64,000 nucleotides of DNA, taken from positions 4,793 to 68,792 of the IMG/VR virus record IMGVR_UViG_3300020197_000017. One strand, 5' to 3'. Below are positions 25,601 to 59,721 of the stretch, in pieces. Made by a program: the position numbers and the translations under genes. How positions within the stretch are numbered: the first letter of the stretch is position 1; each line of letters opens with the position of its first letter. The notes below the pieces were generated by a model. That model saw only the letters and a program-made list of their open reading frames with translations, was not told the DNA's origin and searched no databases. The stretch is from a virus. Its lineage: Duplodnaviria; Caudoviricetes.

Positions 25601-25699
25601 AACACGCCATGGGAAGAGAAGTCATTTCCTCCCCAAGTCAAGTTCCGCGGATTGAGACTCGGATGGATCACAGATCGCGCTGGGGATGGGGGCTGGTAG
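19667..25699 (+). CDS. Large tail fibre / receptor-binding-like structural protein (~2010 aa)
   Basis: ATG at 19667 (MPKYIRRP) with GGGGAG upstream; beta-rich; shares the repeated beta module of upstream baseplate proteins; last gene of the + block. Confidence 0.7.
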   Translation: MPKYIRRPFAMGNTDSPVVTQPILRGSVMKDSSGEFASLLIPSELAIETEDGATSGGISVVFKGTTMVQVLDDINSALTGYATAEEYEGCLVLKSVGTGEGAYIRIMPPVSGFDDASAVFGFEVHPHPLATVSARDLLDTPVRPRQQENPIGTKFIGTGEDRIGKSYNRALDMLARNGDLLYTWLQRSVARKATIVVDSTRHAAQLDTNVDGTIDQVDLSDLSVFNADLAGLRLYVGKSLGLTRNSNLAQISTVYQVADGEMKEIPAGDRTVRIGAVTRGQRGGVLPSFADDITAPTSPVPNTTGVSADGGNALGVDRAKHSGVTITEVRQRTTIVCAGATFETNGVVAGDVATITGAGVSSPFNHNGTYRVDVVVSEEELVLRPADETTDAQELNPAAGAFGTVVISSGGNWESGIWLSFYPPMPRIPEGGKFILTVPVESALGEVALEDMVNGSVRTVAGVDGWSLLNLWKQVSLDGAYQGMGAARGGGFFASITNRPFRLDLRHTATLSDGSIDRTSTGAATLDAHTLRLTAASTDRFDTEDVGKTILLTAGPFLTKEPWTVTRLIDNATVELAPPIHRVGYQETAGTTISVTSWILLDGDAIDVLGAQHVVSPEYFGDTDQAPAAGGYVYSREQRDLGTTDPPTAGLFSLLHLERVRLRRSGVNITIVTAGPTTASNTLPLPFDPEDTYNIYGETYETKMASGQSSITFVRILHGPDAGLYRVKGLKSVSVSTNAVVLQHIDGSPVTLTNGTTPSIAFYNATLAASVPLYGGPGAASTWMGGLSLFVDGYEQDVAFVAPVRINWRGTGTGLYAWLNDEEFKAFDNGDGADGALLTGVLFAPAEGIDIKMTGADTGANERRSGYVLRARAHTSRFDFNLQDPGAAGALFHSQKGFAGYFGQTGKDPAVVVLKVDAGAAGDESARFSGLSPSAALLVGRAGPISTENVSGPAGKGSAVELSGSLYIHRGSYVGGASVPTWSEGGVYVEDVLGAGRWAYPTVGIYDFDGSPYYGTGSYSGWEAPTRLGNPGVIYPPSSNDADVAAEVLATDYTLFNFKHVGIVHITDVTALTPSLTAPFNRFIGCRFKLDDPAADLDQVEFAIIGSMMPAENELYLALHHPTQTIVVDAGHSRYFKILGQRWYQSHIDVADWVQVGTEDASASRTQLPLLTCDPDVLNSRVSVVPDNVQFPSLGLQTYCAWAAAADGVSIGAASADTSTMTSVHVTANAYAAAQHWDGDFDDPIFTHGWSTDAKEPRSPFPNSSTISNVDANHNSSEVLDGSYAGSFAADDYTATFPGGTAQVAWSSSWGGSLEISGNRHAQVRIWQRGRTFVMTNHLAVRVQLRAAVTRPPIFIPGTRMFTIALTKNDGTVVAHAAVGIPTDNRPHDVSATLEVDGVTNAAADALGLSKEVLSLHVTALVALEADNEVISILEFKTEPVTRPLVTSGPQIVTGSVLAHGFRFTDPVPGFDTKGPADVRLLGGLDYARNESWPTYNEGVDGWEHASCTGTQELRCGPGLVRMRSDEQYLNWKIALTLLANALGATDIDAWMTILAYQALNGYESGTEPAGTFGPLEDEANAVYEKCVLAVNEGNLVDKVELAEEAMYLGKVLVDALRVVASRVVDGSGDMAEDLYDYARRVEDAMYFELPATGEYAALLHDEPESNWIRPWVDYYRLFSQGVHSAAITLYNGAFDPLWYAKQADVLYNDTGTTTERLHSDAFVPCGTTGFLVPVNPPHGAVLTSLSIGLSFRAHKSGRWGIYFDMVDSLAAMGTSGAPSTDYVEVARDEDWLAKQGVRVELWRYNAVDFDVSEADWASWSEHEPEFGFGERLARFTINLSEVATPSDTANTVREAWRQPSFLGDYGRDVYVGKEHFARRSWNLIDTAFGSGDARARVDRRHYAYMVVVRFFGGMRQTHASVDLPYVRGDAPGTGFDSRWEIPQMITRRSGTSDGEPVEGQIYGHFDAAYNVDGLENMNTPWEEKSFPPQVKFRGLRLGWITDRAGDGGW

Positions 25700-25703
25700 G
25701 GCT

Positions 25704-25750
25704 AAAGAAAGAGTGCGACGGCTTGAAGTTCAGCCGTCGCACTCCTTCTC
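25704..25750. terminator. Probable bidirectional intrinsic terminator between convergent blocks
   Basis: Perfect 13-bp stem GAGTGCGACGGCT/AGCCGTCGCACTC (25711-25744) flanked by AAAGAAA and CTTCTC. Confidence 0.8.
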
Positions 25751-25803
25751 TCAATCCTCTTCACAAAGGACGCCGTCGTTGGGACTCTCCTCCGATGTGA
25801 AAG

Positions 25804-25839
25804 ATGAGGCCGACCGGGTGCTGACCCGGTCGGCTTCAT
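25804..25839 (-). terminator. Second stem-loop at the end of the - strand block
   Basis: 16-bp stem with one imperfect pair, ATGAGGCCGACCGGGT/ACCCGGTCGGCTTCAT; followed on - strand by CTTTT. Confidence 0.6.
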
Positions 25840-26021
25840 GGCAATGGAACTCCGAGGCGGACAAGCTGACCGAGAAGGGCCGCGTCCGCCGAGTTGACGT
25901 CGAGGTAGACGGAGAGGTTGGTCTCCGCCCACTCGATGAGGTCCTCCGGAGTCATACCCCGGAGGACCTCGATGTCAACCTCGACGGAACGCCCGACCTC
26001 GTGGCCCTTCTCTCGGGTCAG
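25836..26021 (-). CDS. Small protein absent from the ORF track, Rho-N-like helix pair; start uncertain
   Basis: Reads LTREKGHEVGRSVEVDIEVLRGMTPEDLIEWAETNLSVYLDVNSADAALLGQLVRLGVPLP* with typical codon bias; starts at a CTGA overlap or at the internal ATG. Confidence 0.5.
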   Translation of the reverse strand: MTREKGHEVGRSVEVDIEVLRGMTPEDLIEWAETNLSVYLDVNSADAALLGQLVRLGVPLP

Positions 26022-45202: not shown

Positions 45203-45798
45203 ACGCTGACGTCTACAGGACCTGCTTCGCAGAACTCAGCAAGGCCGCCTCGCTGGGCGGCGCCGCCCGCGCCGTAGGGAACTTCGCCCGCGATGCCGGA
45301 GAACTCACACTGCGTGGGTTCACACCTTCCGGAATCCGGGAGGGCTTCCAGGCCGGTAAGCAGCAGCTCCTGCACGGGGACGCATTCTCGCGTATCGGGG
45401 TGGGCGTAGCGGTTCCGTTCACGGCATGGGACACGGCGAACACCCTTCGCACCAAGACGGACCCTGTGAGCGGCAAGCCCATCGGAGTGTTCGAGCGCGG
45501 TGCAACCGCCCTGGGGAAGGTCACCTCTGGGGTGGCAGGCATGACCGCGTTGAACCATGGAGGTCTTTTTCGCGGGCTCGGGGTCGCGATGGCTGCGGGG
45601 CTCGGCACGGACATGATTACGCGGCACGCGGGACGGTTCCTTGATCGGAAGTTGATGCCGACGGCGCCGCAGGGCGGCGCCGCGATCGGGCGCATGAGCA
45701 GTATGTACACCGCGCGCCCGACCGGGCGCATGGGCAGTATGTACGCCGCGCACCCAGCGACTGCCGCTGGCGGTACACCCGTCGCTCGGGGGGCGTGA
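45199..45798 (+). CDS. Gly/Ala-rich, possibly membrane-active protein with leader ending ELSKAA
   Basis: ATGA-coupled; MNADVYRTCFAELSKAAS; hydrophobic Gly-rich segments; 36-bp duplicated unit at 45687-45755. Confidence 0.7.
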   Translation: MNADVYRTCFAELSKAASLGGAARAVGNFARDAGELTLRGFTPSGIREGFQAGKQQLLHGDAFSRIGVGVAVPFTAWDTANTLRTKTDPVSGKPIGVFERGATALGKVTSGVAGMTALNHGGLFRGLGVAMAAGLGTDMITRHAGRFLDRKLMPTAPQGGAAIGRMSSMYTARPTGRMGSMYAAHPATAAGGTPVARGA

Positions 45799-47933
45799 TG
45801 AGCATCGGTGTCCTCGGCGGCGACGCCAGCCGCTTCACCCCGCGCCAGGCCACGTCCTACTGGACGAGCCGCGGGTACGGCGTCCGCTACCCGTCTCCGT
45901 TCTTCGACGTCGCTCAACAGTTCCTCCCCGAGAACGTCCACCAGCTGCACACCTGGTGTCGGTACTACTTCCTCACGAACCCGGTGATCAACGTCGCCTG
46001 CCAGAAGATGGCGGAGTACCCGGTGACGCCGCTGGTCTGGGAGACAGACGACGACCAGCTCGGGAAGCTGTACCTCGACCTCGAGGAGCAGTTGAAGCTG
46101 CGGCAGTTCCAGGTCGAGATCGGCCTGGACTACTTCGTCTACGGCAACGCCTTCGCCAGCGTCTTCTTCCAGCTGGAGAAGTACCTCATCTGCAGACACT
46201 GCCAGGAGCGGGTGCGTGCCTCGAAGAACCGGAGCCGCTACAAGTGGCGCGGGGGCCGGTTCTACCTGCACTGCCCGAAGTGCGCTGTCGAGGATTACGC
46301 CGACCAGGCCGACAACTACCCGCGCAACGCGCGAGGGGCCCGCCTCGTCCGCTGGAACCCCGAGAACATCGAGATCAAGTACAACGAGATCACCGGCAAC
46401 AGCCGGTACTACTTCCGCCTGCCGAGGAGCGTCGTCAACGATGTCCGGCTCGGCGACCCCGAGACGATCGAGACCCTCCCCTACCAGTTCCTCGAGGCGG
46501 CGCGCACGAACCGCGCGCTCCTGTTCCACCCCGACAACTTCTTCCACCTGAAGCGCCCCACCATCGCCCAGAAGGACCAGGGCTGGGGGATGCCGCTGAT
46601 CTTCCCGCTCCTCAAGGACGCCTTCTACATGCAGGTCATGAAGAAGGCCCAGGAGAGTCTGCTTCTCGAACACGTCGTTCCCCTGCGCATCATCTTCCCC
46701 GGGCCCACCACCGGCGGCAACGATGGACCCTTCGGCGCGTACAACCTCGTCAACTGGAAGCAGAAGGTCGAGGTCGAGATGGCGATGTGGAAGCGGGACC
46801 ATAACTACATCCCGATCCTCCCGATGAACATCGGGTACCAGCAGATCGGCGGGCAGGCGAAGGCGCTCATCCTGCACCAGGAGTTCCGCATTCACGCCGA
46901 GGCGATGCTGGCGGGCGCAGGCATCCCCGTAGAGTTCGTCTACGGCGGCTTGCAGTGGTCGAGCTCCAATACCTCGCTGCGCGCTCTCGAAAACACCTTC
47001 CTGGGCTACAACAAGGAGCGGTACAACCTCACGCGCTTTGTCATCGACAAAGTCGCCTCCCACATGGGGTGGCCGCGCATCCCCTTCCGCTTCGAGAAGT
47101 TCCGCATGGCGGACGACCTGCAGCGGGCGATGTTCTACTTCCAGCTCAACCAGGCGAGCAAGGTCTCCGACCAGCGTCTGCTCGAGGAGATCGGCGAGGA
47201 CTTCGACACCGAGCAGGCGCGGCTCACCGCCGAGATGCGGAAGCAGGTCACGACCCAGCGCGCCACGCAGCTCGCGTCTGCCGACATCCAGGGCGCCGCA
47301 ATGCTCCGTACGTCGCGGTACCAGGCCAAGGCGACCGAGATCACGATGAAGGCGCAGGCCTCCACGCAGATGGACATCCAGCAGGAGCAGGCGGCCATGG
47401 GGATGGTCCCCGGTGCCGCGCCTGCGGGCGATCCGGCGGCAGCGGCAGCCAGCGGTGCTCCCGCAGCTGGCGATCCAGCAGCAGGTGCGCAGCAGCCCGA
47501 GGCAGCCCCCGGAGCAGCGCCAGGTGCACCCGCGGGTGCACCTGGGCAGGACGCCGTGCAGCAGACCCCGGGGGTGCCCGAGGGGGCAACGCTCTACGAC
47601 GAGAACGCGGCGACCCCCAACGCATCCCGAGGGCCTACCCCGATGGCGGGTCTCGAGTCCACGCTGCAGATGGGACAGGGCGGCTTCGACATGCGCTACG
47701 TCGCCCAGCGTGTCGCTGCCTACATGAACACGCTGAAGCAGCAGCCCGGCGGCGAGCAGCTGATGTACCAGGAGCTCAATAAGCTGCAGATGGAGAGCCC
47801 GCAGCTCTACCAGATGGTCATCCAGCTGCTGAACAGCAGCGGCTCGGCGCGGAACCCGTTAGACCCGCTCAAGTCCCCCATCACGCCACGGTCCGGTGCG
47901 CAGGTCGACGCAAGCCGGGCAGTGGGAGGTTAA
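45795..47933 (+). CDS. Phage portal protein with Zn-finger-like insertion and Q/A/P-rich C-terminus
   Basis: NPVINVACQKMAEYP, DYFVYGNAF, FFHLKRP...GWGMPLI..LL, MLAGAGIPVEFVYGG. Confidence 0.82.
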   Translation: MMSIGVLGGDASRFTPRQATSYWTSRGYGVRYPSPFFDVAQQFLPENVHQLHTWCRYYFLTNPVINVACQKMAEYPVTPLVWETDDDQLGKLYLDLEEQLKLRQFQVEIGLDYFVYGNAFASVFFQLEKYLICRHCQERVRASKNRSRYKWRGGRFYLHCPKCAVEDYADQADNYPRNARGARLVRWNPENIEIKYNEITGNSRYYFRLPRSVVNDVRLGDPETIETLPYQFLEAARTNRALLFHPDNFFHLKRPTIAQKDQGWGMPLIFPLLKDAFYMQVMKKAQESLLLEHVVPLRIIFPGPTTGGNDGPFGAYNLVNWKQKVEVEMAMWKRDHNYIPILPMNIGYQQIGGQAKALILHQEFRIHAEAMLAGAGIPVEFVYGGLQWSSSNTSLRALENTFLGYNKERYNLTRFVIDKVASHMGWPRIPFRFEKFRMADDLQRAMFYFQLNQASKVSDQRLLEEIGEDFDTEQARLTAEMRKQVTTQRATQLASADIQGAAMLRTSRYQAKATEITMKAQASTQMDIQQEQAAMGMVPGAAPAGDPAAAAASGAPAAGDPAAGAQQPEAAPGAAPGAPAGAPGQDAVQQTPGVPEGATLYDENAATPNASRGPTPMAGLESTLQMGQGGFDMRYVAQRVAAYMNTLKQQPGGEQLMYQELNKLQMESPQLYQMVIQLLNSSGSARNPLDPLKSPITPRSGAQVDASRAVGG

Positions 47934-48773
47934 ATGTTCAAGACTGCCTCTGCTGTCTACGATACTTACGCTCTTGCCTACGAGAAGCTGGCTTATGGAA
48001 ACGAGGAGCACGCGCAGCTCGCAGACATCGCGGCGAAGTCAGTGGGTAGCGGCGCTCCGTCGCCAGCGGTCGCGTCTACGATCCAGCGCGGCGCCCTGAA
48101 GGTGGATAGCGGCATTCGTCATCCGTGGCTGCCACATACGGATCCCTTGCACTCCTTTCCCGGGTCGCAGACGCGATCGATGGTCGGCAAGAATGTCGCG
48201 CAGAAACAGGACTTGGCAGTGCACGATATCGCCAAGTCCATCGCCACCAAGGGAAGTCCCCTTTCCGGTGCGCGCGCACACCGCGGTTTGATGAACCTTG
48301 GAGAGGGGCACCACCAGCTGATGGACATCGGGGCACACATGGAACGTCCCGAGCGGGAGGGCCAGGTGACACGCCTGCGCGGTGTCATGAAGGGGAAGGA
48401 GCACGGATACGGGGGCGGACTTATTTCCGGGCGGGAGCACCATCTCTCCGGGATGAAGCTGAAAAGGGACGGACTGCACGCGGATCTCGATCGGCTGCGC
48501 CCCGAGTCCTCCGCGGTCGATCGCGCGGCCCTTGCGCGTTCGGAGCGCTTCGGTTCTTCGACTGCTAAGAAAGTGCAGGCCCGCCTGGTTTCGCACCACG
48601 GCATGTCACCACAGGCAGCGGCGGCGAACGCCGAGCATTTCTTCCAGCACATGCAGGCCCCGAGCCTCCCCAGCCGAATCGCTGGGGAGGCATCAAGGAC
48701 ATCCCGCTATCTTAGGGGAGAGGCCTCCCGCGCAGGTGGCGCGCTGCGCGCCGCGCTGCGCAGCCTCTACTGA
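47934..48773 (+). CDS. Putative Zn-dependent phospholipase C / S1-P1 nuclease-fold protein with cleavable leader
   Basis: After KLA: YGNEEH (compare WGxxGH); D...H; LGEGHHQLMDIGAH (compare LGxxxHxxxDxxxPxH). Confidence 0.5.
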   Translation: MFKTASAVYDTYALAYEKLAYGNEEHAQLADIAAKSVGSGAPSPAVASTIQRGALKVDSGIRHPWLPHTDPLHSFPGSQTRSMVGKNVAQKQDLAVHDIAKSIATKGSPLSGARAHRGLMNLGEGHHQLMDIGAHMERPEREGQVTRLRGVMKGKEHGYGGGLISGREHHLSGMKLKRDGLHADLDRLRPESSAVDRAALARSERFGSSTAKKVQARLVSHHGMSPQAAAANAEHFFQHMQAPSLPSRIAGEASRTSRYLRGEASRAGGALRAALRSLY

Positions 48774-48952
48774 TGAGGCGGCGGTCCCTCCTGATGAGGC
48801 GGCGGTCCCTCCTGATGAGGCGGCGGTCCCTCCTGATGAGGCGGCGGTCCCTCCTGATGAGGCGGCCGCCTCATAGCTCTCAAAACTGTTCTTATGGTCG
48901 AGATGGGTCCGGTCGTGAAGAACCACATCCACGTCATCAGGCTGTCCACCAT
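48767..48952 (-). CDS. Small protein (61 aa): hydrophobic N-terminus and PPPHQEG repeats
   Basis: AGGAGG 6 nt upstream of ATG, preceded by GGCTATAAGA. Confidence 0.6.
   Translation of the reverse strand: MVDSLMTWMWFFTTGPISTIRTVLRAMRRPPHQEGPPPHQEGPPPHQEGPPPHQEGPPPHQ
48770..48874. repeat. 21-bp tandem repeat (4 copies plus partial) ending in an 18-bp palindrome
   Basis: ctgatgaggcggcggtccctc x4, then ATGAGGCGGCCGCCTCAT (48857-48874). Confidence 0.95.
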
Positions 48953-49019: not shown

Positions 49020-49415
49020 CTACCTGGGGGTGGCGAGCATCAAGACCGAGCTCTGGAAGCCACAGGCCACGCAGGCCCCGTCAGTCCAGTACGGCTCGAT
49101 GTAGAACCCGTCCGTGCACGAGGAGCACACCCACGCGTAGTCGGGCGATCGCTCCTCCAGATCTGCCAACAGCACGGGGCACCTGCCGCAGTTCACGTCC
49201 CCACACATCCCGCCGCGGTTGTACCGCCCCGGCGGCAGCCGCCGGCGCAGGTACTGCGTTGCGTGCTTCAGCTTCGGGCAGAAGACCAGCGTCTCTTCAC
49301 CTGCCTCACCAGGCAGTGTTGGATCTACCCGTAGTGCTGTCGGCGCCCGGCGTACTCGCGGACTCAGCTGATCGCGTAGTTCTCGCAGGGGTGACGCCTT
49401 GCGGCGCTCAGGCAT
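49020..49415 (-). CDS. Cys-rich Zn-binding hypothetical protein
   Basis: ATG 49415 with GGAG; C-x4-C-x2-C, CSSC, CVAC. Confidence 0.6.
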   Translation of the reverse strand: MPERRKASPLRELRDQLSPRVRRAPTALRVDPTLPGEAGEETLVFCPKLKHATQYLRRRLPPGRYNRGGMCGDVNCGRCPVLLADLEERSPDYAWVCSSCTDGFYIEPYWTDGACVACGFQSSVLMLATPR

Positions 49416-49530
49416 ACCTACTCCGTCTCTTCCTTCCAATCCGCGGCAACAGCCCGGCCCCGTACTCCGCGAGGCCGGTGGCCACCCCGCTGATGAAGGC
49501 GAACAGGAGCATCCACTCGAGCGTGCTCAT
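49408..49530 (-). CDS. 40-aa single-pass membrane peptide (below the ORF-track cutoff)
   Basis: MSTLEWMLLFAFISGVATGLAEYGAGLLPRIGRKRRSRYA; AGGAGG 9 nt upstream; stop overlaps the next start. Confidence 0.6.
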   Translation of the reverse strand: MSTLEWMLLFAFISGVATGLAEYGAGLLPRIGRKRRSRYA

Positions 49531-49720
49531 CTACGACATCCTCCTGGGCCATCGGCCCCGATACCATCTGGTGTACCAAACTCGCGAACTCTGACAGGGT
49601 GGACCGGTGCGCCCCCGCCGTCTTGTCATGCAGCGCGCGCTTCCGGGGCGTGGTAGAACTTTGAGTCACAGGCTACCTCCGTCATGGCTCTTATGGCCAG
49701 TAGTGGAGCGCTCTTCACAG

Positions 49721-52700
49721 ATGCCGAACCTTAACCCAGAAGCCGCTTTCGAGAGTCTCAAGGAGCGCGCCGCCGAGGCGATCCGCGCGCAGTTCCCGTT
49801 CGAGGGGGCGCGGCGGCGGCTGGAGCTGGCTGAGATCGTCTTCGACGACCGCGCGGCCATCTCCTCCGACATCCATCACGTCGACAACCTTGAGGAGCAG
49901 TTCCGCGCGCGGACGACCGGTATGACCTGGGGCGTGCCGGTCCGGGCACGACTGCGTCTCGTTGACAAGACGAGCGGTGCCCTCGTGGAGGAGAAGCTCG
50001 TCACGCTCGCACGCCTCCCGAAGATGACGCGCCGGTACTCCTACATCATCGAGGGGCAGGAGCGACAGCACGACAGCGTCTTCCGCTCGAAGCCCCGCCC
50101 CTACCACCGCATTGCGGGCAACGGCGACCTCCAGGGGCGCTGGAACCTGGCGCGCGGCCGCGGGTTCGACATCGGCTACGAACCCAAGGCCGGCAAGATG
50201 ACATTCTCGGTGGGGACCTCGAACCTGCCGCTCTACTCCGTGCTTCGCACACTCGGTGTCACGGATGCGGAGATCGAGCACGCCTGGGGGAACGCCGTCT
50301 ACGCCGCCAACACGAAGGCGGTCCACCTCGACAAGGACGTGGACAAGCTCTTCGCAGCGCTCGGGCTGCGCCTCGAGGACCGGTCGCACGGGACGCCGCA
50401 GGCGCGTGCCCAGCGCGTCCGCGAGTACTTCGACAGGGAGACCGAGGTCTGGCCAGACGCGATGAAGTCGGCGTTCGGCAGGGAGTCCTCCAACGTCAAC
50501 GGCGAGAACCTCCTCGCATCCTCGCGCCGGCTCCTGGACATCCAGAAGGGACGCACGAAGGAAGACCCGCCGCCGTCCGAGCTCCCCGATGATCGACAGG
50601 CGCTGTCGGCCAAGTACCTGACCACGACCGAGGACTTCGTCGTGGAGGCCATCCGCCATCACGAGACGCTGCTGCGGCGCCAGGTGCGCGACCGGATCGA
50701 CAAGCCCGAGTACGGCATCGACCAGATCATGTCGCCGAACACCTACAACAAGGTCGTCCTGGCACCGTTCGCCCACGCGCAGCGGCCCGACCAGACCAAC
50801 CCGCTCCAGTTCCTCTCGGGGCACATGCGGACGACGATCCGCGGCAAGGACTTTGGCGGCGTCGGCAGTGACAAGATCAACCTCGACCCCGACAAGGAAC
50901 TGAACCCCACGCACCTTGGGTTCATCGATCCGATCCAGACCCCAGAGGGAGAGGACACCGGGATCGCGCTGAACCTGCCCCTGGGGATCCACATGTCGCG
51001 TGCCGACGTGCGCGAGGGCTCGAAGAGCAAGACGTCTTCCGGCCAGGACCTACGCACAAAGGTCTTCGACACGAAGACGGGGAAGATGATCTTGGCCTCG
51101 CCGGCGGACCTCGAGCACGCCATCGTGGCCTACCCGGACCAGGTGCGCTGGGTGCGGGGCATGCCCGAGCCGGTGTCGAACGAGGTCGTCTGCTACGACG
51201 AGGAGCGTCGCACGTCGAAGCGTCCCTGGGCGAAGGTCCGGTACGTGCTCCCGTCGTCGAAGGCCCTGCTCTCCTTCAGTGCGAACCTCATCCCGTTCCT
51301 CCAGAACGACAACGGCAACCGCGCCATGATGGCTGCCAAGCAGCAGGAGCAGGCGCTCGCACTGGTGCACCGGGAAGCTCCGCTCGTGCAGGTGAAGACG
51401 GACGGCGCCCAGACCTTCGAGCAGGTTGTGGGCTCCTTCGTCTCGCACACGTCGCCCGTGGCCGGCGTGGTCAGGAAGGTGGAGCCGGGCGCCATCCATG
51501 TCCAGACGCCCACGGGCTCCGTGGCGGTCCCGGTCTACAACCACTTCCCGCTGAACGGGGGGAAGAACTCGCTCCACGCTGCACCGCTCGTGAAGGCGGG
51601 CGACACCGTACAGAAGGGCACGCTGCTCGCGGACACGAACTACACGAAGGGCGGCGCGCTCGCGATGGGGGCCAATCTGCGGGTGGCCTACATCCCGTGG
51701 AAGGGTCTGACCTTCGAGGACGGGATCGTCGTGTCCGAGTCCGCCGCGCAGAAGATGGCGTCGGACCACCTGCACGTCTCGGAGATCACGGTCTACGCGA
51801 GCATGCTCGGCGGCACCGGCGGGTCGAAGGCGCGCTGGGCGGACTACGCGACCCCTGCCGCGGCTTCGCCGGAGCACCTGGCCAAGCTCGACGACCGCGG
51901 GATCGTGAAGGAGGGGACGCCTGTACACACCGGCGACATCCTCGTGGCCGTCCTCAGCCCGAAGCAGATGAGCGAGGACGACAAGATCGCTGCGCGCATC
52001 CACAAGTCCCTCGCGAAGCCCTACAAGGACGTGTCGCTCCTGTGGGACCACCCGTACTCCGGGACCGTAGTCAAGATCATCGTCAACGAGACTCTGAACC
52101 GGCGCCAGATCGCGGTCCACGTGAAGACGTCCAAGCCGCTCGAGATCGGTGACAAGATGGCGGGGCGGCACGGCAACAAGGGCATCATCAGCCGCATCGT
52201 CCCCGACTCCCAGATGCCCCACACGAAGGACGGGCAGCACGTCGAGGTCCTCCTGAACCCCGCGGGCGTGCCCAGCCGTATGAACGTGGGGCAGGTGCTC
52301 GAGACGGCCGCGTCGAAGATCGCGGACAAGACCGGCAAGCCCTACGTCGTGGAGAACTTCGTGCCCGGCGTCGACTACGCCGCGCAGGTCAAGCGGGATC
52401 TGGCACGGTACGGGCTCTCCGATACGGAAGAGCTCATCGACCCGGAGACCGGACGCTCGGTCGGGCAGGTGATGGTCGGCAAGCAGTACATGATGCAGCT
52501 GCATCACCAGGTCGAGAAGAAGATGACCGGTCGGTCCTTCGCGACCGGCTACACGCACTCCGGGGAGGCCCCGAAGGGCTCCGGCGTCCCTGGCGGCGGG
52601 CAGAAGATGGACATGCTCACGACGTACGCGATGCTCGCGCACGGTGCGAACCAGAACCTCCGGGAGGCCTACACCTTCAAGAGCGACGGGGACCAGCACG

Positions 52701-55700
52701 CCGCCTGGGCCGCCGTGATCTCCGGGAGTCCGCTCCCGCCGCCGCAGCCCTCGCGTGGGATGACCAACTTCCAGCACTACCTACGCGCCATGGGGGTGAA
52801 CACCGAGAAGCGTGGCGACGAGTACGTCATGATGCCGATGACGGACGCGCACCTGCTGGGCGACACGAAGCGCGGCATCCACGGCATCTCGAACGGAGAG
52901 ATCCGGCTCCCGGAGAAGCAGACCGTCGCTCGCGGGGCGCGGACCGTCGAAGAGTCGGGCGGCCTGTTCGACCCGCGCGTCACGGGCGGCCTCCAGGGCA
53001 AGTTCTGGAGCCACGTGACGCTCGCCGAGCGCATGCCGAACCCCATCTTCGAGGGGGCCATCCAGAACCTGACGGGCCTGACGAAGAAGGAATACGACAT
53101 GCTCACCAGCGAGAAGGGGCTGGTCGGCGGGAAGTCAGGGTTCCACATCATCAACGCGCGGCTGTCCGCCATCGACGTGGACAAGGAACTGAAGGCGGAG
53201 CAGGCGAAGCTGGCCACGGCGAGCAGGACCGATCTGAACCGCGGGCTCAAGAAGATCCGGTACCTCGAGGCCCTCAAGGCGCACGACATGTCGCCCCTCG
53301 AGGCCTACACGAACCAGCACCTGCCCGTGCTGCCGCCCGCGGTGCGTCGCGTGTCCATCGGGCTCGACGGCAAGCAAGTGACCGACGACCGGAATCCCTT
53401 GTACCTGAACGTCGGGTACAACAACGGCATCCTCAAGAACCTCGACAAGTCGTCGACGCACGCCGGGGCCCAGAAGGCACGCGCTGAGCTCTACAACAGC
53501 ATCAGGGCGCTCCGTGTCGAGGGCATGACCTCTCCCGCAGGCACCGGCAAGCCGCGGCACATGCAGGGGCTCATGGAGCTCCTCTCCGGGAAGACGGAGG
53601 ATCGCGGGGCTCCGAAGGAGAGCTTCTTCCAGGAGGGTGTGCTTGCGCGGCGCCAGGATCTCTCCGGACGCTCGACGATCGTCCCTGAGCCGACGCTTGG
53701 GCTCGACGAGGTCGGAGTCCCGCGCCCGATCCTTATGGAGATGTACAAGCCCTTCGTGATCCGCGAGCTCGTGCGGGGCGGGAAGACGCACATCGACGCG
53801 CTCAAGTGGGCCACCGAGAAGCGGGACCACCCTCAGGTCCTCGCGGCACTCGAGCGCGCCGTCGCGGACCACCCGGTGTTCCTCAAGCGCGACCCCGGCC
53901 TGCACAAGTTCAGCATCATGGCGTTCAACCCGAAGATCGTGGACGGCAGCGCCATCAAGATCCACCCACTGGTGACCAAGGGCTTCAACGCGGACTTCGA
54001 CGGCGACACGATGGCCCTCTACGTGCCCGTCTCTCCGCAGGCGGTCGACGAGGCCCGGAAGGTCCTCCCTTCCAAGAACCTGTTCTCGCCCACTACCTAT
54101 GGACTCATGACGGTGCCCGATCAGGACTCCCTGCTTGGGCTCTTCCAGTCTACCAAGTGGGGCGAAGAGGCGAAGACCCCCGCCGGTCTCACGGCCGAGC
54201 GGGCCGTCCAGATGATGCACGACGGGAAGCTGAAGCCGTCGGACGTGATCACGGTCGATGGGAAGAAGACGACTCCCGGTCGACTGGCCTTGGCCGCGCA
54301 CCTTCCCGGCGAGATGGCGAAGCATGAGCAGCTCCTGCACGACCCCGCGTTCCGCCTCGACTCGGGGCGGCTGAAGGCGCTACTCACGCGCGTTGGCAAG
54401 GAGCACGAGCAGGCCTTCCCGCACGTCGTCGATGCGTGGAAGGACCTGGGCAACACCATGTCGTTCAAGAACGGGAGCTCCTTCTCGATCGACGACTTCC
54501 ACGACGGCGCGGCGTTCCGCGACCAGGTCCTGAAGAAGTACCGGGAGCAGGAGAAGAAGCTGCACGCCACGCCGATGTCGAGCCGGAAGCGTGACCAGGA
54601 GATCGTCAAGCTCTACCAGGACGCACAGGCCGAGCTGAAGCAGCTCGGGGTGGTCCGCTACAACCAGGGTGACAACCGCGTGTGGGAGTGGGCGCAGGCC
54701 GGTGCGCGCGGCAACTGGGGGCAGTTCTCGCAGCTGACCGTCGCCCCCATCCTCGTCGACGACCTGATGAAGCGTCCCGTGCCGGTCCCCATCACCAAGT
54801 CCTTCGGTGAGGGACTGTCTGTCTCCGAGTACTGGGCGTCGATGCACGGTGCTCGCAAGGGCACCATCGACCGCGCGCAGGGCACCAAGGAGCCTGGTGC
54901 CGTGACGAAGGACATCGTGAACACCACGATGGGCATCCAGATCACGGGCGAAGATTGCGGGGCCACGGCCGGCAAGACGGTCAGCGTGGGCGCAGTGGAC
55001 CTGGTCGACCGCTTCCTCGCCACCGACGTCAAGCTCCCGGACGGCCATGCCATCCCCGCGGGCACTCTCGTGACGCCGGCGCTGGTCTCTCAGCTGCGGA
55101 ACGCTGGTGTGCAGGAGGTAGTGGCGCGCTCCCCGCTGTTCTGCCGGATGCCGCGCGGCATCTGTGCGAAGTGCTATGGGCACTCGGAGCGCGGGGCCCT
55201 GCACGCCGTCGGGACGAACATCGGGGTCATCGCAGGCCAGGCGCTCGGTGAGCCGATCACCCAGCTCACGATGAAGACCTTCCACACGGGAGGCGTCTCG
55301 GGGGCAAAGACCGCTGTCGACTCCTTCAAGCGCGTGAAGCAGCTGTTCATGCTGCCGGACAAGCTCCCGGACCGCGCCACCCTGGCCACGGTCGGAGGCG
55401 TGGTCGAGAAGATCTCCACGGACGCCCTCGGCGGATTCACCGTGGTCATTGAAGGCAAGCCCCACCGCGTGGTGACCGGGCACCTGCTCGAGCATGTGAA
55501 GGTCGGCGCTCGCGTCCATCGCGGCGATGCGCTCTCCACGGGCCCCACGGATCCACACGAGCTGCTGCACCACACGAAGAGCATCGGGCGCGTCCGGAAC
55601 TACATCACGGACGAGGTGGCCACAGCCTACCAGGGGATGGTGCGGCAGCGGAACATCGAGACCGTCGTGCGGGGGATGACGAACCTCGCCGAGATCCACG

Positions 55701-56038
55701 ATGCCCCGCACGCCAGCCCGTTCCGTCGCGGCGAGGTCGTGCCGCTGTCTGCCGTCGAGGCGCACAACGCGGAGGCCGAAGCCGAAGGGCACGAGACGGT
55801 CTCGCACGCACCGGTGCTCCGCGCCATGACCCAGGTCCCGCTCAGCGGCACCGAGGACTGGATGGCGCGCCTCAACTACCAGCGCCTGAAGGACACCTAC
55901 ACCGAGGGTGCCGCCCAGGGCTGGAAGTCCAACATCCACGAGCACCCGATCCCGGGGCTCGCGCACGGAGCGGAGTTCGGAACACGCCCGCCGCGTGCTA
56001 TCTCTGCACCCTCACCCGCCGCTGGAGTACGTCGATGA
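49721..56038 (+). CDS. rpoBC: Phage-encoded single-chain fused beta-beta' DNA-directed RNA polymerase (~2105 aa)
   Basis: beta motifs QTPEG, LIPFLQND..NRAMM, GDKMAGRHGNKG, LNPAGVPSRMNVGQ, GGQK; beta' motifs GLFDP, SGRSTI, R.P.LH, FNADFDGD, HGARKG, CAKCYG, GEPITQLTMKTFHTGG, all in one frame. Confidence 0.95.
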   Translation: MPNLNPEAAFESLKERAAEAIRAQFPFEGARRRLELAEIVFDDRAAISSDIHHVDNLEEQFRARTTGMTWGVPVRARLRLVDKTSGALVEEKLVTLARLPKMTRRYSYIIEGQERQHDSVFRSKPRPYHRIAGNGDLQGRWNLARGRGFDIGYEPKAGKMTFSVGTSNLPLYSVLRTLGVTDAEIEHAWGNAVYAANTKAVHLDKDVDKLFAALGLRLEDRSHGTPQARAQRVREYFDRETEVWPDAMKSAFGRESSNVNGENLLASSRRLLDIQKGRTKEDPPPSELPDDRQALSAKYLTTTEDFVVEAIRHHETLLRRQVRDRIDKPEYGIDQIMSPNTYNKVVLAPFAHAQRPDQTNPLQFLSGHMRTTIRGKDFGGVGSDKINLDPDKELNPTHLGFIDPIQTPEGEDTGIALNLPLGIHMSRADVREGSKSKTSSGQDLRTKVFDTKTGKMILASPADLEHAIVAYPDQVRWVRGMPEPVSNEVVCYDEERRTSKRPWAKVRYVLPSSKALLSFSANLIPFLQNDNGNRAMMAAKQQEQALALVHREAPLVQVKTDGAQTFEQVVGSFVSHTSPVAGVVRKVEPGAIHVQTPTGSVAVPVYNHFPLNGGKNSLHAAPLVKAGDTVQKGTLLADTNYTKGGALAMGANLRVAYIPWKGLTFEDGIVVSESAAQKMASDHLHVSEITVYASMLGGTGGSKARWADYATPAAASPEHLAKLDDRGIVKEGTPVHTGDILVAVLSPKQMSEDDKIAARIHKSLAKPYKDVSLLWDHPYSGTVVKIIVNETLNRRQIAVHVKTSKPLEIGDKMAGRHGNKGIISRIVPDSQMPHTKDGQHVEVLLNPAGVPSRMNVGQVLETAASKIADKTGKPYVVENFVPGVDYAAQVKRDLARYGLSDTEELIDPETGRSVGQVMVGKQYMMQLHHQVEKKMTGRSFATGYTHSGEAPKGSGVPGGGQKMDMLTTYAMLAHGANQNLREAYTFKSDGDQHAAWAAVISGSPLPPPQPSRGMTNFQHYLRAMGVNTEKRGDEYVMMPMTDAHLLGDTKRGIHGISNGEIRLPEKQTVARGARTVEESGGLFDPRVTGGLQGKFWSHVTLAERMPNPIFEGAIQNLTGLTKKEYDMLTSEKGLVGGKSGFHIINARLSAIDVDKELKAEQAKLATASRTDLNRGLKKIRYLEALKAHDMSPLEAYTNQHLPVLPPAVRRVSIGLDGKQVTDDRNPLYLNVGYNNGILKNLDKSSTHAGAQKARAELYNSIRALRVEGMTSPAGTGKPRHMQGLMELLSGKTEDRGAPKESFFQEGVLARRQDLSGRSTIVPEPTLGLDEVGVPRPILMEMYKPFVIRELVRGGKTHIDALKWATEKRDHPQVLAALERAVADHPVFLKRDPGLHKFSIMAFNPKIVDGSAIKIHPLVTKGFNADFDGDTMALYVPVSPQAVDEARKVLPSKNLFSPTTYGLMTVPDQDSLLGLFQSTKWGEEAKTPAGLTAERAVQMMHDGKLKPSDVITVDGKKTTPGRLALAAHLPGEMAKHEQLLHDPAFRLDSGRLKALLTRVGKEHEQAFPHVVDAWKDLGNTMSFKNGSSFSIDDFHDGAAFRDQVLKKYREQEKKLHATPMSSRKRDQEIVKLYQDAQAELKQLGVVRYNQGDNRVWEWAQAGARGNWGQFSQLTVAPILVDDLMKRPVPVPITKSFGEGLSVSEYWASMHGARKGTIDRAQGTKEPGAVTKDIVNTTMGIQITGEDCGATAGKTVSVGAVDLVDRFLATDVKLPDGHAIPAGTLVTPALVSQLRNAGVQEVVARSPLFCRMPRGICAKCYGHSERGALHAVGTNIGVIAGQALGEPITQLTMKTFHTGGVSGAKTAVDSFKRVKQLFMLPDKLPDRATLATVGGVVEKISTDALGGFTVVIEGKPHRVVTGHLLEHVKVGARVHRGDALSTGPTDPHELLHHTKSIGRVRNYITDEVATAYQGMVRQRNIETVVRGMTNLAEIHDAPHASPFRRGEVVPLSAVEAHNAEAEAEGHETVSHAPVLRAMTQVPLSGTEDWMARLNYQRLKDTYTEGAAQGWKSNIHEHPIPGLAHGAEFGTRPPRAISAPSPAAGVRR

Positions 56039-56394
56039 ACAAGGTCGCCCACGTCTACGAGATCTACAAGGAAGCGGGTTTCGACAAGGAGGCCATCAGC
56101 TTCGCGCCCGTCGGCGAGGCCGTCACCAGCGGTGCAAAGTGGGTGGGACACCAGGTTGGGCGCCTCGGCGGTGCGATGCAGCGCACGGCGTACCAGGCGA
56201 GCCAGGGGGTTCCTACGCGGGGCACGACGTGGCTCCACGAAGCGGGCCAGGGCGTGCGCAACCTCGGCAGGGGCATCGCGGCGAACCCCGGCACGGCCGC
56301 GGGCGTCGCGGGGCTCGCTGGCGCCGGCATGATCGGTGCCGGAGGCGCGGGCGTCCTCGCCGGCCGCATGACCGCACCGCGGCGCCAGCAGTAG
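56035..56394 (+). CDS. Small Gly/Ala-rich protein with shared leader and C-terminal hydrophobic anchor
   Basis: MNKVAHVYEIYKEAGFDKEA; AAGVAGLAGAGMIGAGGAGVLAGR...RR; ATGA-coupled to RNAP. Confidence 0.75.
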   Translation: MNKVAHVYEIYKEAGFDKEAISFAPVGEAVTSGAKWVGHQVGRLGGAMQRTAYQASQGVPTRGTTWLHEAGQGVRNLGRGIAANPGTAAGVAGLAGAGMIGAGGAGVLAGRMTAPRRQQ

Positions 56395-56400
56395 GCCTGC

Positions 56401-57576
56401 ATGACCACCGCGAGGCGGGCACACCGCGGGAGCTCCAGCAGCGGACCTCCCAGCGGCGCGATCATCCTGGCGGGGAAGATCATCGACGTCGATCCCCTCC
56501 GCTGGACGTGCATCGTCCGCACGGAGGGGACAGACGTCTCCAAGGTCCTGTACGACGTCCCGCTCGGCGGTAGCTACCTGCACCTGCTGAACGGGGAGGG
56601 CATGTATGTCATGCCCGACATCGGCGCGCTGGTGCAGGTCTGCGAACCGAGCGAGGGGGACTCGCCACCCTTCATCGTCGCGTACCGCCCCTATCCGAGC
56701 CGCTCCGTCGCCACCTCGAGCGACGAGAACAAGCCGTCGGCGACGAACAACCGCCCGCGCATGGGCCCCGGCGACATGGCCATCTTCGGCCGAGACCGGA
56801 ACGGCCTGTTCGTTCGGCGTGGCCAGGTGACGGAGATCTTCGGCGGCCCTCTCGCGCGCACGCTTTACCTCGGACGCACGAGCACGATCCACTCGATCTG
56901 CCAGGTGGCGAAGCTCGACGTGTTCGGCGGGTCTGCCCGCTGGGAGGTCGACCGCCCGGAGTCGGACCCGGACGGTCACCAGGCGACGCGACTCGACCTG
57001 AAGATGAAGGAGTACGCGGACGACCGGGCCTACGCAGCGCGTCTGCAGGTGGGTGGGTCCCTCGACGCCACGACTGAGGGTGCGGTTGATGGAGAGGCCG
57101 GCGAGAGCGGCGCACCTCCGGACAGCGTCGAGCTCGCGGGCCCGGTTGTCCGCCTCCGCGTCTACGAGGACGGGGACGTCGAGGAGGCGGACCTCACAGC
57201 AGCCTCGTCCCTCGCGATCAACAAGGGTGGAGAGATCGAGCTCACCACGAAGGGCAAGACCGTCATCAAAATCCTCGGGAGCAGCACCGTCACGCTGACG
57301 GTCAACACCGATGGTACGGTCACTCTGGACGCGGACACCTCCGTCACCACCACGGCAGCGGGGCTGGCAGTCACGCACACCGGAGACAAGGTGAAGGTGG
57401 GGAACGGGACCGCGCGCGCTCTCTTCGACCTGAGTTTCAGCGCCGACGCAGCGGCTGCCTGGACCGAGGTCTCCGCGCTGGCGAAGGCGCTCGGCCTGCC
57501 CTCCACGAATATCGACAAGCACGCTGCCTCCCTCGGCGCGCAGGCCTACACCGCGCAAAAGCTGGAGACGGACTGA
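56401..57576 (+). CDS. Baseplate central spike (gpV/gp5-like OB fold plus beta-helix)
   Basis: GKIIDVDP..WTCIV...GMYVMPDIGALVQV...PFIVAY; Thr/Val-rich beta C-terminus. Confidence 0.65.
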   Translation: MTTARRAHRGSSSSGPPSGAIILAGKIIDVDPLRWTCIVRTEGTDVSKVLYDVPLGGSYLHLLNGEGMYVMPDIGALVQVCEPSEGDSPPFIVAYRPYPSRSVATSSDENKPSATNNRPRMGPGDMAIFGRDRNGLFVRRGQVTEIFGGPLARTLYLGRTSTIHSICQVAKLDVFGGSARWEVDRPESDPDGHQATRLDLKMKEYADDRAYAARLQVGGSLDATTEGAVDGEAGESGAPPDSVELAGPVVRLRVYEDGDVEEADLTAASSLAINKGGEIELTTKGKTVIKILGSSTVTLTVNTDGTVTLDADTSVTTTAAGLAVTHTGDKVKVGNGTARALFDLSFSADAAAAWTEVSALAKALGLPSTNIDKHAASLGAQAYTAQKLETD

Positions 57577-58377: not shown

Positions 58378-59721
58378 GTGCCTCTCCAGTTTGTCACCGA
58401 CCAGTACACCGACAGCAGCGTCACCACCAGCAAACTCGCCGACGCCTCCATCACGGGCGCCAAGCTCGCCGCCGACGCGAAGGCCAGCGCACTCCAGTCG
58501 AAGCTGGTGGGCCGCTGGGTCCAGGTCGCGGAGCAGGCGAGCCCTTCCGCAAGCACGATGAACGTCAAGACCCTGCTGGGCTTCGACAGCGCCGCGGGCG
58601 TGGACCCCGAGGGTGTCGCCAAGGGCAAGGATGCTCTCCTGGAAGCGGCGAACGGCAACGAGTTCAACACCACGACCGGCAAGGTCGGTGCGAACGCTCG
58701 CGCCCGCAGCAGCAAGGTGCCCATCATGGACGCGAGCGGCGATGCCATCGTGGACAGCGTCGGTCGCGAGGTCTGGGGCGTGATCTCCTGTTCCGCCCGC
58801 ACCACGGCGGGCAGCTACACCCTCCGCTTCTTCAGCGGCGAGTTCGGCAGCGGGACCGAGATCGCCTACACGATGGCATCGCCGTTCGTCTTCGCCTACG
58901 CGCAGATTTTCGACCTGAACGACATGCCGGTCTGGGATGACGCGACCGTCGCCATGGTTGACAAGTCGGCCGCGCAGCTCGCCGCCGGGCAGATCGTCAC
59001 CAGCCTCCTGGCCGCCGACGCCGTCACCAGCGCCAAGCTCTCGTCCTCCGCTGCCGATGACTCCGCCCGCGCCGTGTCCACGAACCACGTCAAGGACTCC
59101 GCGATCTCGTCCACGAAGATCGCGAACGGCGCGGTCGTGGCCGGGAAGTACGCGGCGGGTAGCATCGCCAACGCCGACATGGCCGACTCTGCCGTGAGCG
59201 GCGCGAAGATCGCCAACGGCGGCGTCAGCGCCGGGAAGTACGCTGCGGGCAGCATTGCCACGGCTGACATCGCGGATGACGCGGTGGACGCGGGCAAGCT
59301 GAAGGACAGCGTGGCTACCGATGCCGACCGCGCCGTGACCACGAACCACATTCGCAACCTCGCGATCACGAACGATAAGATCGCCTCGAGCACCATCGGC
59401 GCGGGTAAGTTCGCGGCTGGTGCCATCACGACCGGCGACCTCGCCAACGACGCCGTGACCCTCGCCAAGATCGGTGCCCGCGCGAAGGCCGAGTCGCTGG
59501 ACGGCGGCAACGCCACGAAGCACGCGCTGGTGAACGTGGTCCCCGCCGCACACTACCCGGGTATCCATGCCTTCCGCAACGGGCAGCGTGCCAGGTTCGT
59601 CACGGGCGTCCCGGCCAGCATCGACGAGTACCGCGTGATCGAGGAGGGCGGCGCCACGAAGATCGAGTGGGGCGCGTCTATCCCCGCCGGGCAGACCGTC
59701 CAGATCGACTACATGGTATAG
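58378..59721 (+). CDS. Fibre protein with 10-residue D-x-A-V-T-x-A-K-L-A type repeats
   Basis: Repeats DSSVTTSKLA, DASITGAKLA, DAVTSAKL, DAVTLAKI; C-terminal FRNGQR domain. Confidence 0.75.
   Translation: MPLQFVTDQYTDSSVTTSKLADASITGAKLAADAKASALQSKLVGRWVQVAEQASPSASTMNVKTLLGFDSAAGVDPEGVAKGKDALLEAANGNEFNTTTGKVGANARARSSKVPIMDASGDAIVDSVGREVWGVISCSARTTAGSYTLRFFSGEFGSGTEIAYTMASPFVFAYAQIFDLNDMPVWDDATVAMVDKSAAQLAAGQIVTSLLAADAVTSAKLSSSAADDSARAVSTNHVKDSAISSTKIANGAVVAGKYAAGSIANADMADSAVSGAKIANGGVSAGKYAAGSIATADIADDAVDAGKLKDSVATDADRAVTTNHIRNLAITNDKIASSTIGAGKFAAGAITTGDLANDAVTLAKIGARAKAESLDGGNATKHALVNVVPAAHYPGIHAFRNGQRARFVTGVPASIDEYRVIEEGGATKIEWGASIPAGQTVQIDYMV

Follow-up and report, generated by a model that had tools for sequence, protein, structure and literature searches.

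The core of bacterial RNA polymerase normally requires five chains, with an alpha dimer as the first step of assembly. Among phage enzymes, the closest known systems to the one described here are those of the distantly related, cultured Salmonella phage Arash (Gp206 and Gp216, with the sigma factor Gp10; OQ632216) and of the Vibrio phages D69, D148, and D181. We analyzed a window of 64,000 nucleotides, corresponding to bases 4793-68792 of the 68,792-base IMG/VR virus record IMGVR_UViG_3300020197_000017 (CheckV completeness 36%), from an uncultured phage whose sequence is held by runs that are all lake-water metagenomes. One gene in this window (49721-56038, + strand) encodes a fused beta-beta' RNA polymerase of 2105 amino acids (aa). 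We consider it probable that this gene specifies a bacterial-type DNA-dependent RNA polymerase core with two double-psi beta-barrels, made as one chain; this judgment bears jointly on the single-chain core, on its working without alpha and omega, and on the use of a phage sigma factor, whereas packaging of the enzyme in the virion is held with lower confidence.

The window carries the signature of the Arash/D69-related clade (GGLFD..TGG..G..W.H..L....NP, Cys-free, with a portal gene upstream), and D69 falls in the same clade as our polymerase in a tree of beta'. Arash and D69 also have the same direct, Cys-free passage from beta to beta', and their group shares the order of portal, small gene, and polymerase as well as a homologous sigma-like gene, in genomes of ~180-187 kb. 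However, the polymerases of this group are only ~28-31% identical to ours, and their beta' is split at a point corresponding to about residues 1512-1520 of our protein, with a second gene of 606-609 aa located some kb downstream, whereas ours is one chain. The large protein is annotated as "subunit beta" in Arash and as "hypothetical" in D69. Judging from open frames, Arash, D69, and four contigs binned into metagenome-assembled genomes (MAGs) encode beta plus the N-terminal part of beta' in ~1490-1546 aa and the C-terminal part of beta' separately in ~610-813 aa, while a single chain is found in the family of our polymerase and in seven other distant loci. The beta/beta' junction is fused in all examined loci that cover it, and the fusion, together with the loss of the beta' N-terminal zinc ribbon presented below, is therefore an old feature of the clade.

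Other described enzymes resemble the polymerase in part. Cellular beta-beta' fusions, represented by models NF007172 and NF011417 (which we take to be the fused subunits of Helicobacter and Wolbachia), work with alpha, omega, and a host sigma factor and keep the zinc ribbon. In these fusions, the beta C-terminus is joined to the beta' N-terminus in one polypeptide, indicating that such a topology is compatible with function, and the models span 2839-2890 positions compared to 2105 aa for the phage protein. The enzymes of the mReC (multi-subunit-RNAP-encoding Caudovirales; Weinheimer and Aylward 2020), as described in the main text of PMC7481178, come from uncultured tailed phages found in metagenomes and IMG/VR; their beta and beta' are matched by cellular models, carry NADxDGD, branch apart from cellular enzymes, and are encoded among virion genes. 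In that main text, beta and beta' of the 97 contigs are handled as separate subunits, and crAssphage is the only case for which a fusion is named. The mReC terminase marker PF03237 was detected in two of five relatives of our phage, one of them above the cut-off, and the capsid marker PF07068 in none of the five, but no control matched the latter either.

According to reviews of the phiKZ and AR9 enzymes, these are likewise phage two-barrel polymerases without alpha or omega homologues, one set of which is packaged in the virion. Unlike our polymerase, a single chain encoded as a single set, they comprise four to five polypeptides with two sets per genome, and they use gp68 or gp226 rather than a sequence-recognizable sigma factor, whereas our phage has a sigma-70-family-like factor. 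Very large single packaged chains that start early transcription have been reported for crAss-like phi14:2 (gp66; 10.1101/2020.03.07.982082), P23-45 (an enzyme fused to the tape measure; 10.1101/2022.12.01.518664), and N4 (vRNAP; PMC13434306), and, as functional counterparts, they hint at why a single chain may be suited to ejection. The gp66 and P23-45 enzymes are two-barrel proteins too divergent for cellular beta/beta' models, and the N4 vRNAP is T7-like. Our polymerase, by contrast, can be aligned with bacterial beta and beta' along almost all of its length. No description of a fused, zinc-ribbon-less design was found in the literature searched, including the portions consulted of PMC7481178, PMC7824862, PMC7598289, and PMC13282480.

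The polymerase gene and its landmarks, all on the + strand, are as follows (HMM, hidden Markov model).

49721-56038, + strand: fused beta-beta' RNA polymerase gene, 2105 aa (open frame; Pfam beta and beta' domains)
49721-52840, + strand: beta-like module, about aa 1-1040 (family HMM against E. coli beta; alignment to Thermus beta)
52148-52183, + strand: GDKMAGRHGNKG, beta motif, aa 810-821 (motif position)
52256-52294, + strand: NPAGVPSRMNVGQ, beta motif, aa 846-858 (motif position)
52841-53050, + strand: beta/beta' junction, where the zinc ribbon is missing (aligned pairwise with E. coli beta')
52841-56038, + strand: beta'-like module, about aa 1041-2105 (family HMM against E. coli beta'; PDB matches; invariant columns)
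about 53393-53500, + strand: clamp helices (alignment)
53987-54007, + strand: NADFDGD, Mg-binding triad of beta', aa 1423-1429 (motif position)
from 54851, + strand: bridge helix, from aa 1711 (motif position)
54956-55174, + strand: second zinc site (invariant Cys)
55247-55294, + strand: trigger loop, aa 1843-1858 (motif position)

The frame is open without interruption from 49607 to 56038, and relatives align with the polymerase from residue 1 at the ATG at 49721; the calculated mass of the protein is ~230 kDa. A first-pass annotation, made from the sequence alone, had placed all catalytic motifs of both large subunits in one frame of ~2105 aa, and both motif positions and Pfam searches bear this out. 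Rpb2_3 and Rpb2_6 of beta were found at aa 357-939 (E 6.8e-66 for Rpb2_6), and Rpb1_2 and Rpb1_5 of beta' at aa 1310-1865 (E 3.9e-29 and 3.8e-23). Furthermore, the best PDB matches of the beta' module were bacterial beta' chains, with E values down to 6.8e-107, and one beta-like and one beta'-like phage family were matched in PHROGs, both of function unknown. In a 22-row alignment of the family, the catalytic motifs of both modules are invariant or nearly so. The beta-barrel segments GDK..GRHGNKG and NP.GVPSRMN.GQ are present, with G810, D811, K812, G815, R816, N819, K820, G821, P851, R853, N855, G857, and Q858 invariant, and so are all three aspartates of NADFDGD (D1425, D1427, and D1429). 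The rifampicin pocket departs from that of E. coli at two classic positions, the HMM alignment setting Gly against H526 and Thr against S531, from which one might guess that the enzyme is insensitive to rifampicin.

The fused layout was found in all 120 listed relatives, which represent at least 120 protein clusters from many assemblies and are 40-75% identical to the polymerase. Most of these proteins measure 2030-2125 aa and lie on contigs of up to ~200 kb. Such enzymes are not rare: a 136-aa junction segment alone matches 754 representative clusters at E <= 1e-3, of which 343 remain at E <= 1e-10, and among the best 150 of these clusters, 100 measure at least 1900 aa. The polymerase family is thus both large and barely described, and its design is set apart by the single chain, the absence of the zinc ribbon, the lack of any alpha or omega found, and a sigma factor of its own; the window adds a new member to it. 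It appears that a widespread phage lineage has reduced the bacterial machine to one 230-kDa chain and a small sigma factor. As a side observation, many longer relatives (e.g., P0002, P0008, and P0013-P0015) contain intein or LAGLIDADG (homing-endonuclease) Pfam domains inside the polymerase, with frames reaching 2986 aa in L004 and 2889 aa in L011, while the copy in the window has no intein.

The C-terminal end of beta aligns to residues 1029-1097 of the 1119 of Thermus beta, and ~45 residues further on, GGLFDPRVTGG (aa 1080-1090) abuts LQGKFWSHVTL (aa 1091-1101; 52958-53023 for both). It had been claimed that these two segments run directly into each other and that the beta' N-terminal zinc ribbon is missing. 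Pairwise alignment confirmed both points, residues 70-100 of E. coli beta', with C70, C72, C85, and C88, having no counterpart. The polymerase has five cysteines in all (491, 1746, 1808, 1815, and 1818), none of them between aa 491 and 1746, so that the four-Cys ribbon is absent. The second beta' zinc site, which the first-pass annotation had recognized as kept, is indeed formed by C1746, C1808, C1815, and C1818 (EDCG ... FC ... CAKCYG), the counterparts of E. coli C814, C888, C895, and C898. These four residues are invariant in the 22 rows, and the pattern is present in 115 of the 120 relatives. As judged from these alignments, the beta-like and beta'-like modules are joined head to tail, essentially without a linker.

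The same junction recurs across the family. A Cys-free segment of 28-34 aa was found in 106 of 106 relatives matched by our junction pattern, out of 120 examined, and the junction likewise lacks cysteine in Arash, in D69, and in a further six phage-type loci that are more distant; the pattern missed 14 of the 120 relatives and 8 of 14 distant loci, and those eight were re-read by BLAST. An AlphaFold model of aa 930-1500 (mean pLDDT 72; 64-95 per 10-residue block over model residues 141-180, which hold the junction) shows a short hairpin in place of the zinc ribbon. Structurally, the model is matched best by beta' chains of bacteria and gamma chains of cyanobacteria. A single-sequence PDB search with aa 960-1200 returned the beta C-terminal end only, with no beta' N-terminus matched.

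As the first-pass annotation had noted, the polymerase is several hundred residues shorter than its cellular counterparts, with 2105 aa versus 1342 + 1407 in E. coli, a difference of 644 residues. The family HMM locates this difference as follows.

E. coli beta, aligned: 50-238, 426-933, 1015-1125, and 1207-1339
E. coli beta, without counterpart: 239-425, 934-1014, and 1126-1206
E. coli beta', aligned: 163-947 and 1131-1346
E. coli beta', without counterpart: 948-1130, with residues 1-162 compressed into ~84 positions

The unaligned stretches are, we assume, largely lineage-specific insertions of E. coli, including the trigger-loop insertion, and most of the 644-residue difference is therefore not a phage-specific reduction. 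The description of the enzyme as streamlined is thus correct as to size, but most of the missing residues belong to insertions specific to the E. coli lineage. The beta'-like part, at ~1065 aa, is nevertheless below the shortest beta' among the PDB matches (1161 aa).

We then considered the remaining subunits. Neither alpha PF01193 nor omega PF01192 matched any of five relatives at E <= 1, and alpha PF01000 matched none of five genomes (this contig and four relatives) at the same threshold, while the same searches gave matches in 14 of 14 control genomes. Among the relatives searched for alpha and omega, two have a completeness of 99-100% and polymerases with 74% identity to ours. These results agree with the suggestion, made in the first-pass annotation, that the enzyme is perhaps alpha-independent. 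The same annotation had recognized no alpha, omega, or sigma gene in the window. This is literally true, but a sigma-like gene lies just outside it on the same contig.

G000:C1:2804-3682 (L032:1312-2190), 1.1 kb before window base 1: sigma-like gene, 292 aa (homology to Arash Gp10)

This gene is part of the tail/baseplate block, and ~50 kb separate it from the polymerase gene. All five genomes searched contain one copy of a homologue of Arash gp10, that of this contig matching at G000:C1:2993-3553 (E 1.8e-17), and the polymerase gene is likewise present once per genome in five of five relatives. An initial reading that the phage has no sigma factor, based on a negative search with PF04542, was dropped once the Gp10 homologue was found. 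The sigma-like protein belongs to 29 relative clusters including its own, and PF04539 was detected in 22 of the 28 others. When the family profile was compared with the PDB, the best 60 matches were sigma factors only (best E 3.8e-7), covering regions 2.3 to 3.1. Its structural model (pLDDT 81) shows a sigma-like helix pattern. Foldseek gave 49 matches at E <= 1e-3, and the matches listed are sigma factors, three integrative models aside; these sigma matches span ~230-290 columns with low TM-scores of 0.2-0.3. No Sigma70 region 4 Pfam match was obtained in the sigma-like protein of this contig. Separately, P0122 is 100% identical to the sigma-like protein and lies on a 164,412-base contig, and a fuller assembly of the phage therefore probably exists.

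A predicted complex of the sigma-like protein with polymerase aa 1040-1440 scored 0.76, compared to 0.00 for the best of three controls, at a mark that 58 of 80 solved complexes attain but only 2 of 110 mismatched pairs. Between runs, at least 66% of contacts agree, with a partner pLDDT of at least 73, and the predicted interface pairs polymerase aa 1226-1259, which align with the clamp helices, with sigma aa 73-126. The presence of one sigma-like gene per genome and the fold on the clamp helices make sigma-independence, which the first-pass annotation had implied, unlikely; rather, the enzyme is probably sigma-dependent and uses the phage's own sigma factor.

Several observations count against this picture of a self-sufficient core with its own sigma factor. 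Neither this contig nor any of five relatives was matched by Sigma70_r2 (PF04542) at E <= 1, and Sigma70_r3 reached 20.6 bits on the sigma-like protein of this contig against a cut-off of 25.3, and we therefore call the protein sigma-like. Sigma region 2 and the clamp helices are a textbook pair, so that the passing score of the predicted complex may reflect likeness to solved holoenzymes and not binding of this copy; our own alignments were used, and the calibration counts therefore hold only roughly. As for alpha and omega, the searches have Pfam-level sensitivity, and a very divergent or unrelated assembly partner, or a borrowed host alpha, could serve instead.

We propose that the polymerase would fold without alpha or omega because the covalent beta-beta' link would replace the assembly platform, and that the 292-aa sigma-like protein of the phage would dock on the clamp helices and direct the enzyme to promoters. 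If the purified protein proved active, no simpler cell-like transcription system would be available to structural, mechanistic, and synthetic biology, and it would show that the zinc ribbon, alpha, and omega are dispensable in a bacterial enzyme. With less confidence, the polymerase gene would be expressed with the surrounding virion genes, and the enzyme, perhaps with sigma, would be packed in the particle, delivered with the DNA, and would start transcription there. There being one polymerase gene per genome, newly made copies of the same enzyme would therefore serve later genes too.

By analogy with Arash, we put packaging of the polymerase in the virion at slightly better than even. Late co-expression would be consistent with the conserved location of the gene in the midst of virion genes, and according to the virion mass spectrometry given in PMC10585845, Arash Gp206 was the most detected protein (3516 spectra), above the major capsid protein, with Gp216 (1210 spectra) and the sigma factor Gp10 (467) found in the same preparation. 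If the enzyme is indeed carried in the particle, it would represent a fourth independent way to start phage transcription without the host enzyme, beside those of the N4, phiKZ-like, and crAss-like phages. A more far-reaching proposal, which we advance tentatively and rate as falling short of even, is that the whole holoenzyme, i.e., single-chain core and phage sigma, would be virion cargo threaded through the tail with the DNA, and that fusion, ribbon loss, and loss of alpha and omega would be adaptations to unfold, pass, and refold alone. Were this true, no sigma-dependent RNA polymerase of cell-like type would previously have been known to enter a host by viral delivery, and bacterial transcription would have a natural minimal model made of two polypeptides.

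The evidence from Arash also tells against packaging in some respects. The virion list in PMC10585845 is broad, with 116 of 252 proteins including ribonucleotide reductases and ligases, and its authors allow for carry-over of abundant proteins. Moreover, the Arash enzyme is ~30% identical to ours and has a split beta', no RNA runs are listed among the sequencing runs holding the phage, and with one polymerase gene per genome, a purely intracellular middle or late enzyme would be equally simple. An alternative is that the same single-chain, sigma-dependent enzyme is not packaged, the host polymerase transcribing the early genes, including this one, and the phage enzyme the middle and late genes. 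All five relatives carry a single polymerase gene, and reviews state that phages injecting a multisubunit-type enzyme usually carry a second set. Furthermore, the HMM map covers nearly the whole chain and leaves no extra N- or C-terminal domain for ejection, and the contamination allowed by the Arash authors would account for a broad virion list. A non-packaged enzyme must, however, be reconciled with the top rank of its homologue in the Arash virion preparation (PMC10585845) and with the location of the gene in a structural block beside the portal in 25 of 25 loci, and we regard it as possible but doubtful.

We judge quite improbable a further alternative, in which the polymerase is a sigma-independent minimal enzyme working alone or with a non-sigma factor, and the sigma-like protein serves the host polymerase. 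Our polymerase lacks the zinc ribbon, a contributor to the RNA exit channel beside sigma region 4, and the sigma gene lies ~50 kb away from the polymerase gene. Phage sigma factors that redirect the host polymerase are also common, as stated in a review, in large phages without a polymerase of their own. Against this, the sigma-like gene and the fused polymerase occur together, one copy each, in five of five genomes and in Arash, and the virion preparation reported in PMC10585845 contains both Arash proteins. In addition, the clamp helices are kept, and the predicted complex would set sigma region 2 on them (0.76 versus 0.00). A sigma-dependent single-chain enzyme thus remains the preferred reading.

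The authenticity of the gene was examined at the levels of assembly, similarity, and phylogeny. Logan contigs of two possible source runs cover 49600-52180 and 52151-56100 with 0 differences, and 52816-53081, which spans the junction, is also covered with 0 differences by a run that is not flagged as source. With the junction thus covered by contigs of three runs without a difference, no stop separates the beta and beta' parts, which the first-pass annotation had named as a finding that would speak against its reading. In all four runs, contigs end at the codons of GDKMAGRHGNKG (52148-52183). These bases are common to the polymerase genes of many organisms, which raises the summed depth there to 550-980, and a second depth peak lies at 53940-54156, around NADFDGD. 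Identity to cellular rpoBC is 28-30%, and the NCBIfam scores lie far below the cut-offs (346 versus 801 bits for TIGR02013, 380 versus 896 for NF001616, and 491.9 versus 963.5 for TIGR02386 of rpoC), including those of the fused rpoBC models (547 versus 5372 bits for NF007172 and 473 versus 4632 for NF011417). When the family alignment was used as the query, the matches comprised about a dozen contigs of phage type in MAG bins together with cellular rpoBC, and a search for six peptides specific to the polymerase in 185,579 species genomes (one each) revealed no relative.

In a FastTree phylogeny of the N-terminal half of beta' (95 rows), the phage-type rows fall on one side of a branch labelled 98 (starred), and the polymerase is nested in none of the sampled cellular groups. 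Branching inside a bacterial clade beside host genes, the other contrary outcome named at first, was thus not found, and the flanks are viral, all 25 related loci having the portal gene on the upstream side. FastTree is a fast method, the cellular sample is skewed to Patescibacteria and Clostridia with few Pseudomonadota, and L048 and L002 were dropped for coverage below 70%, a filter that Arash did not pass. Two Pseudomonadota MAG contigs, L047 and L049, have stop-free frames of 1849 and 1950 aa matching aa 637-1870 and 797-1870 of the polymerase, respectively, and group with E. coli in the tree, which suggests that they are cellular-type fused rpoB-rpoC genes in these bins. A host rpoB-rpoC segment misjoined to phage DNA, or two genes fused by assembly or sequencing error, has a negligible chance of explaining the locus: contigs of many organisms do collide at 52148-52183, the most conserved polymerase motif, and this stretch is therefore hard to assemble, but the explanation is ruled out by the same continuous frame in every one of the 120 listed relatives, the portal gene upstream in 25 of 25 related viral contigs, the unaltered junction in the run not flagged as source, the low identity and NCBIfam equivalog scores, the position outside the cellular rows, and the lack of a relative in the species genomes.

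The neighbors of the polymerase gene are listed below (ORF, open reading frame).

45795-47933, + strand: portal protein, 712 aa (tblastn to Arash gp204, E 7e-79, and to D69, E 3e-86)
47934-48773, + strand: 279-aa ORF, function unknown, N-terminal leader-like motif (no Pfam or PHROG match; homologues in 2 of 25 loci)
49020-49439, - strand: Cys-rich 139-aa ORF between portal and polymerase, possible zinc ribbon (homologues in 17 of 25 loci)
56035-56394, + strand: 119-aa ORF, leader-like N-terminus (homologue in 1 of 25 loci at E <= 1e-5)
56401-57576, + strand: 391-aa conserved downstream neighbor (homologues in 22 of 25 loci)
58378-59721, + strand: tail-fiber-like protein (PHROG 892 tail fiber protein, E 7.5e-21)

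The placement of the polymerase among virion genes, as claimed at first, is thus upheld, the gene lying between that of the portal, whose homologue is found upstream in all 25 related loci, and a baseplate-spike-like gene; this order is conserved among related loci. For the 391-aa protein encoded by the latter, the nearest ESM Atlas clusters are Phage_base_V (score 0.96, 201 shared features). It has no Pfam or PHROG match, and its assignment as a baseplate central spike (gpV/gp5-like) is therefore a lead only.

The leader-bearing ORF that had been described as coupled to the polymerase corresponds to 56035-56394, whose start shares 4 bases (ATGA) with the polymerase stop. The 119-aa product ends in a Gly-rich hydrophobic segment and a basic tail. 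Its first 20 residues (56035-56100) resemble those of the ORF at 47934 (47934-47996), both following Y-[DE]-x-Y ... [FY]-[DEQ]-K-x-A. This leader-like segment is kept in homologues (L005:16369-, L004:8365-), followed by YG..EH in the 279-aa family, and could be a shared propeptide or targeting signal, which the N-terminus of the polymerase resembles only loosely. On the opposite strand, the region 49418-49669 has coding capacity for a short peptide that is hydrophobic and ends in a basic tail, and ~50 bases separate the start of this - strand ORF from the polymerase ATG. Across the 300 bases upstream of the polymerase gene, the alignment of four relatives shows short conserved blocks, but some of this 300-base stretch codes on the other strand.

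The window as a whole has a G+C content of 66% and is organized in three blocks, namely, a + strand tail/baseplate block, in which a 2210-aa protein carries a Baseplate_J domain, a - strand block for replication that encodes two helicases, one of them DnaB-like, and the + strand block that contains the polymerase. No tRNA was found in the window. Sigma-70-type promoter-like sites numbered 0 in the 45-61 kb region versus 1.1 expected, which is uninformative, and the intergenic gaps of the window are too few for motif discovery. Three tandem repeats lie in or beside gaps, at 48770-48866 upstream of the polymerase block (21 bp x 4.6, 100% matches), at 19376-19491 upstream of a 2042-aa ORF (27 bp x 4.3, 100% matches), and, in imperfect form, at 45677-45755 upstream of the portal gene (36 bp x 2.2, 88% matches); regulatory or recombination sites are possible roles for them. 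Finally, the G+C content drops to 0.58-0.59 at 22001-26000, compared to ~0.66 elsewhere; this segment corresponds to the 3' half of the 2042-aa ORF (19571-25699) and may be a recently exchanged receptor-binding part.

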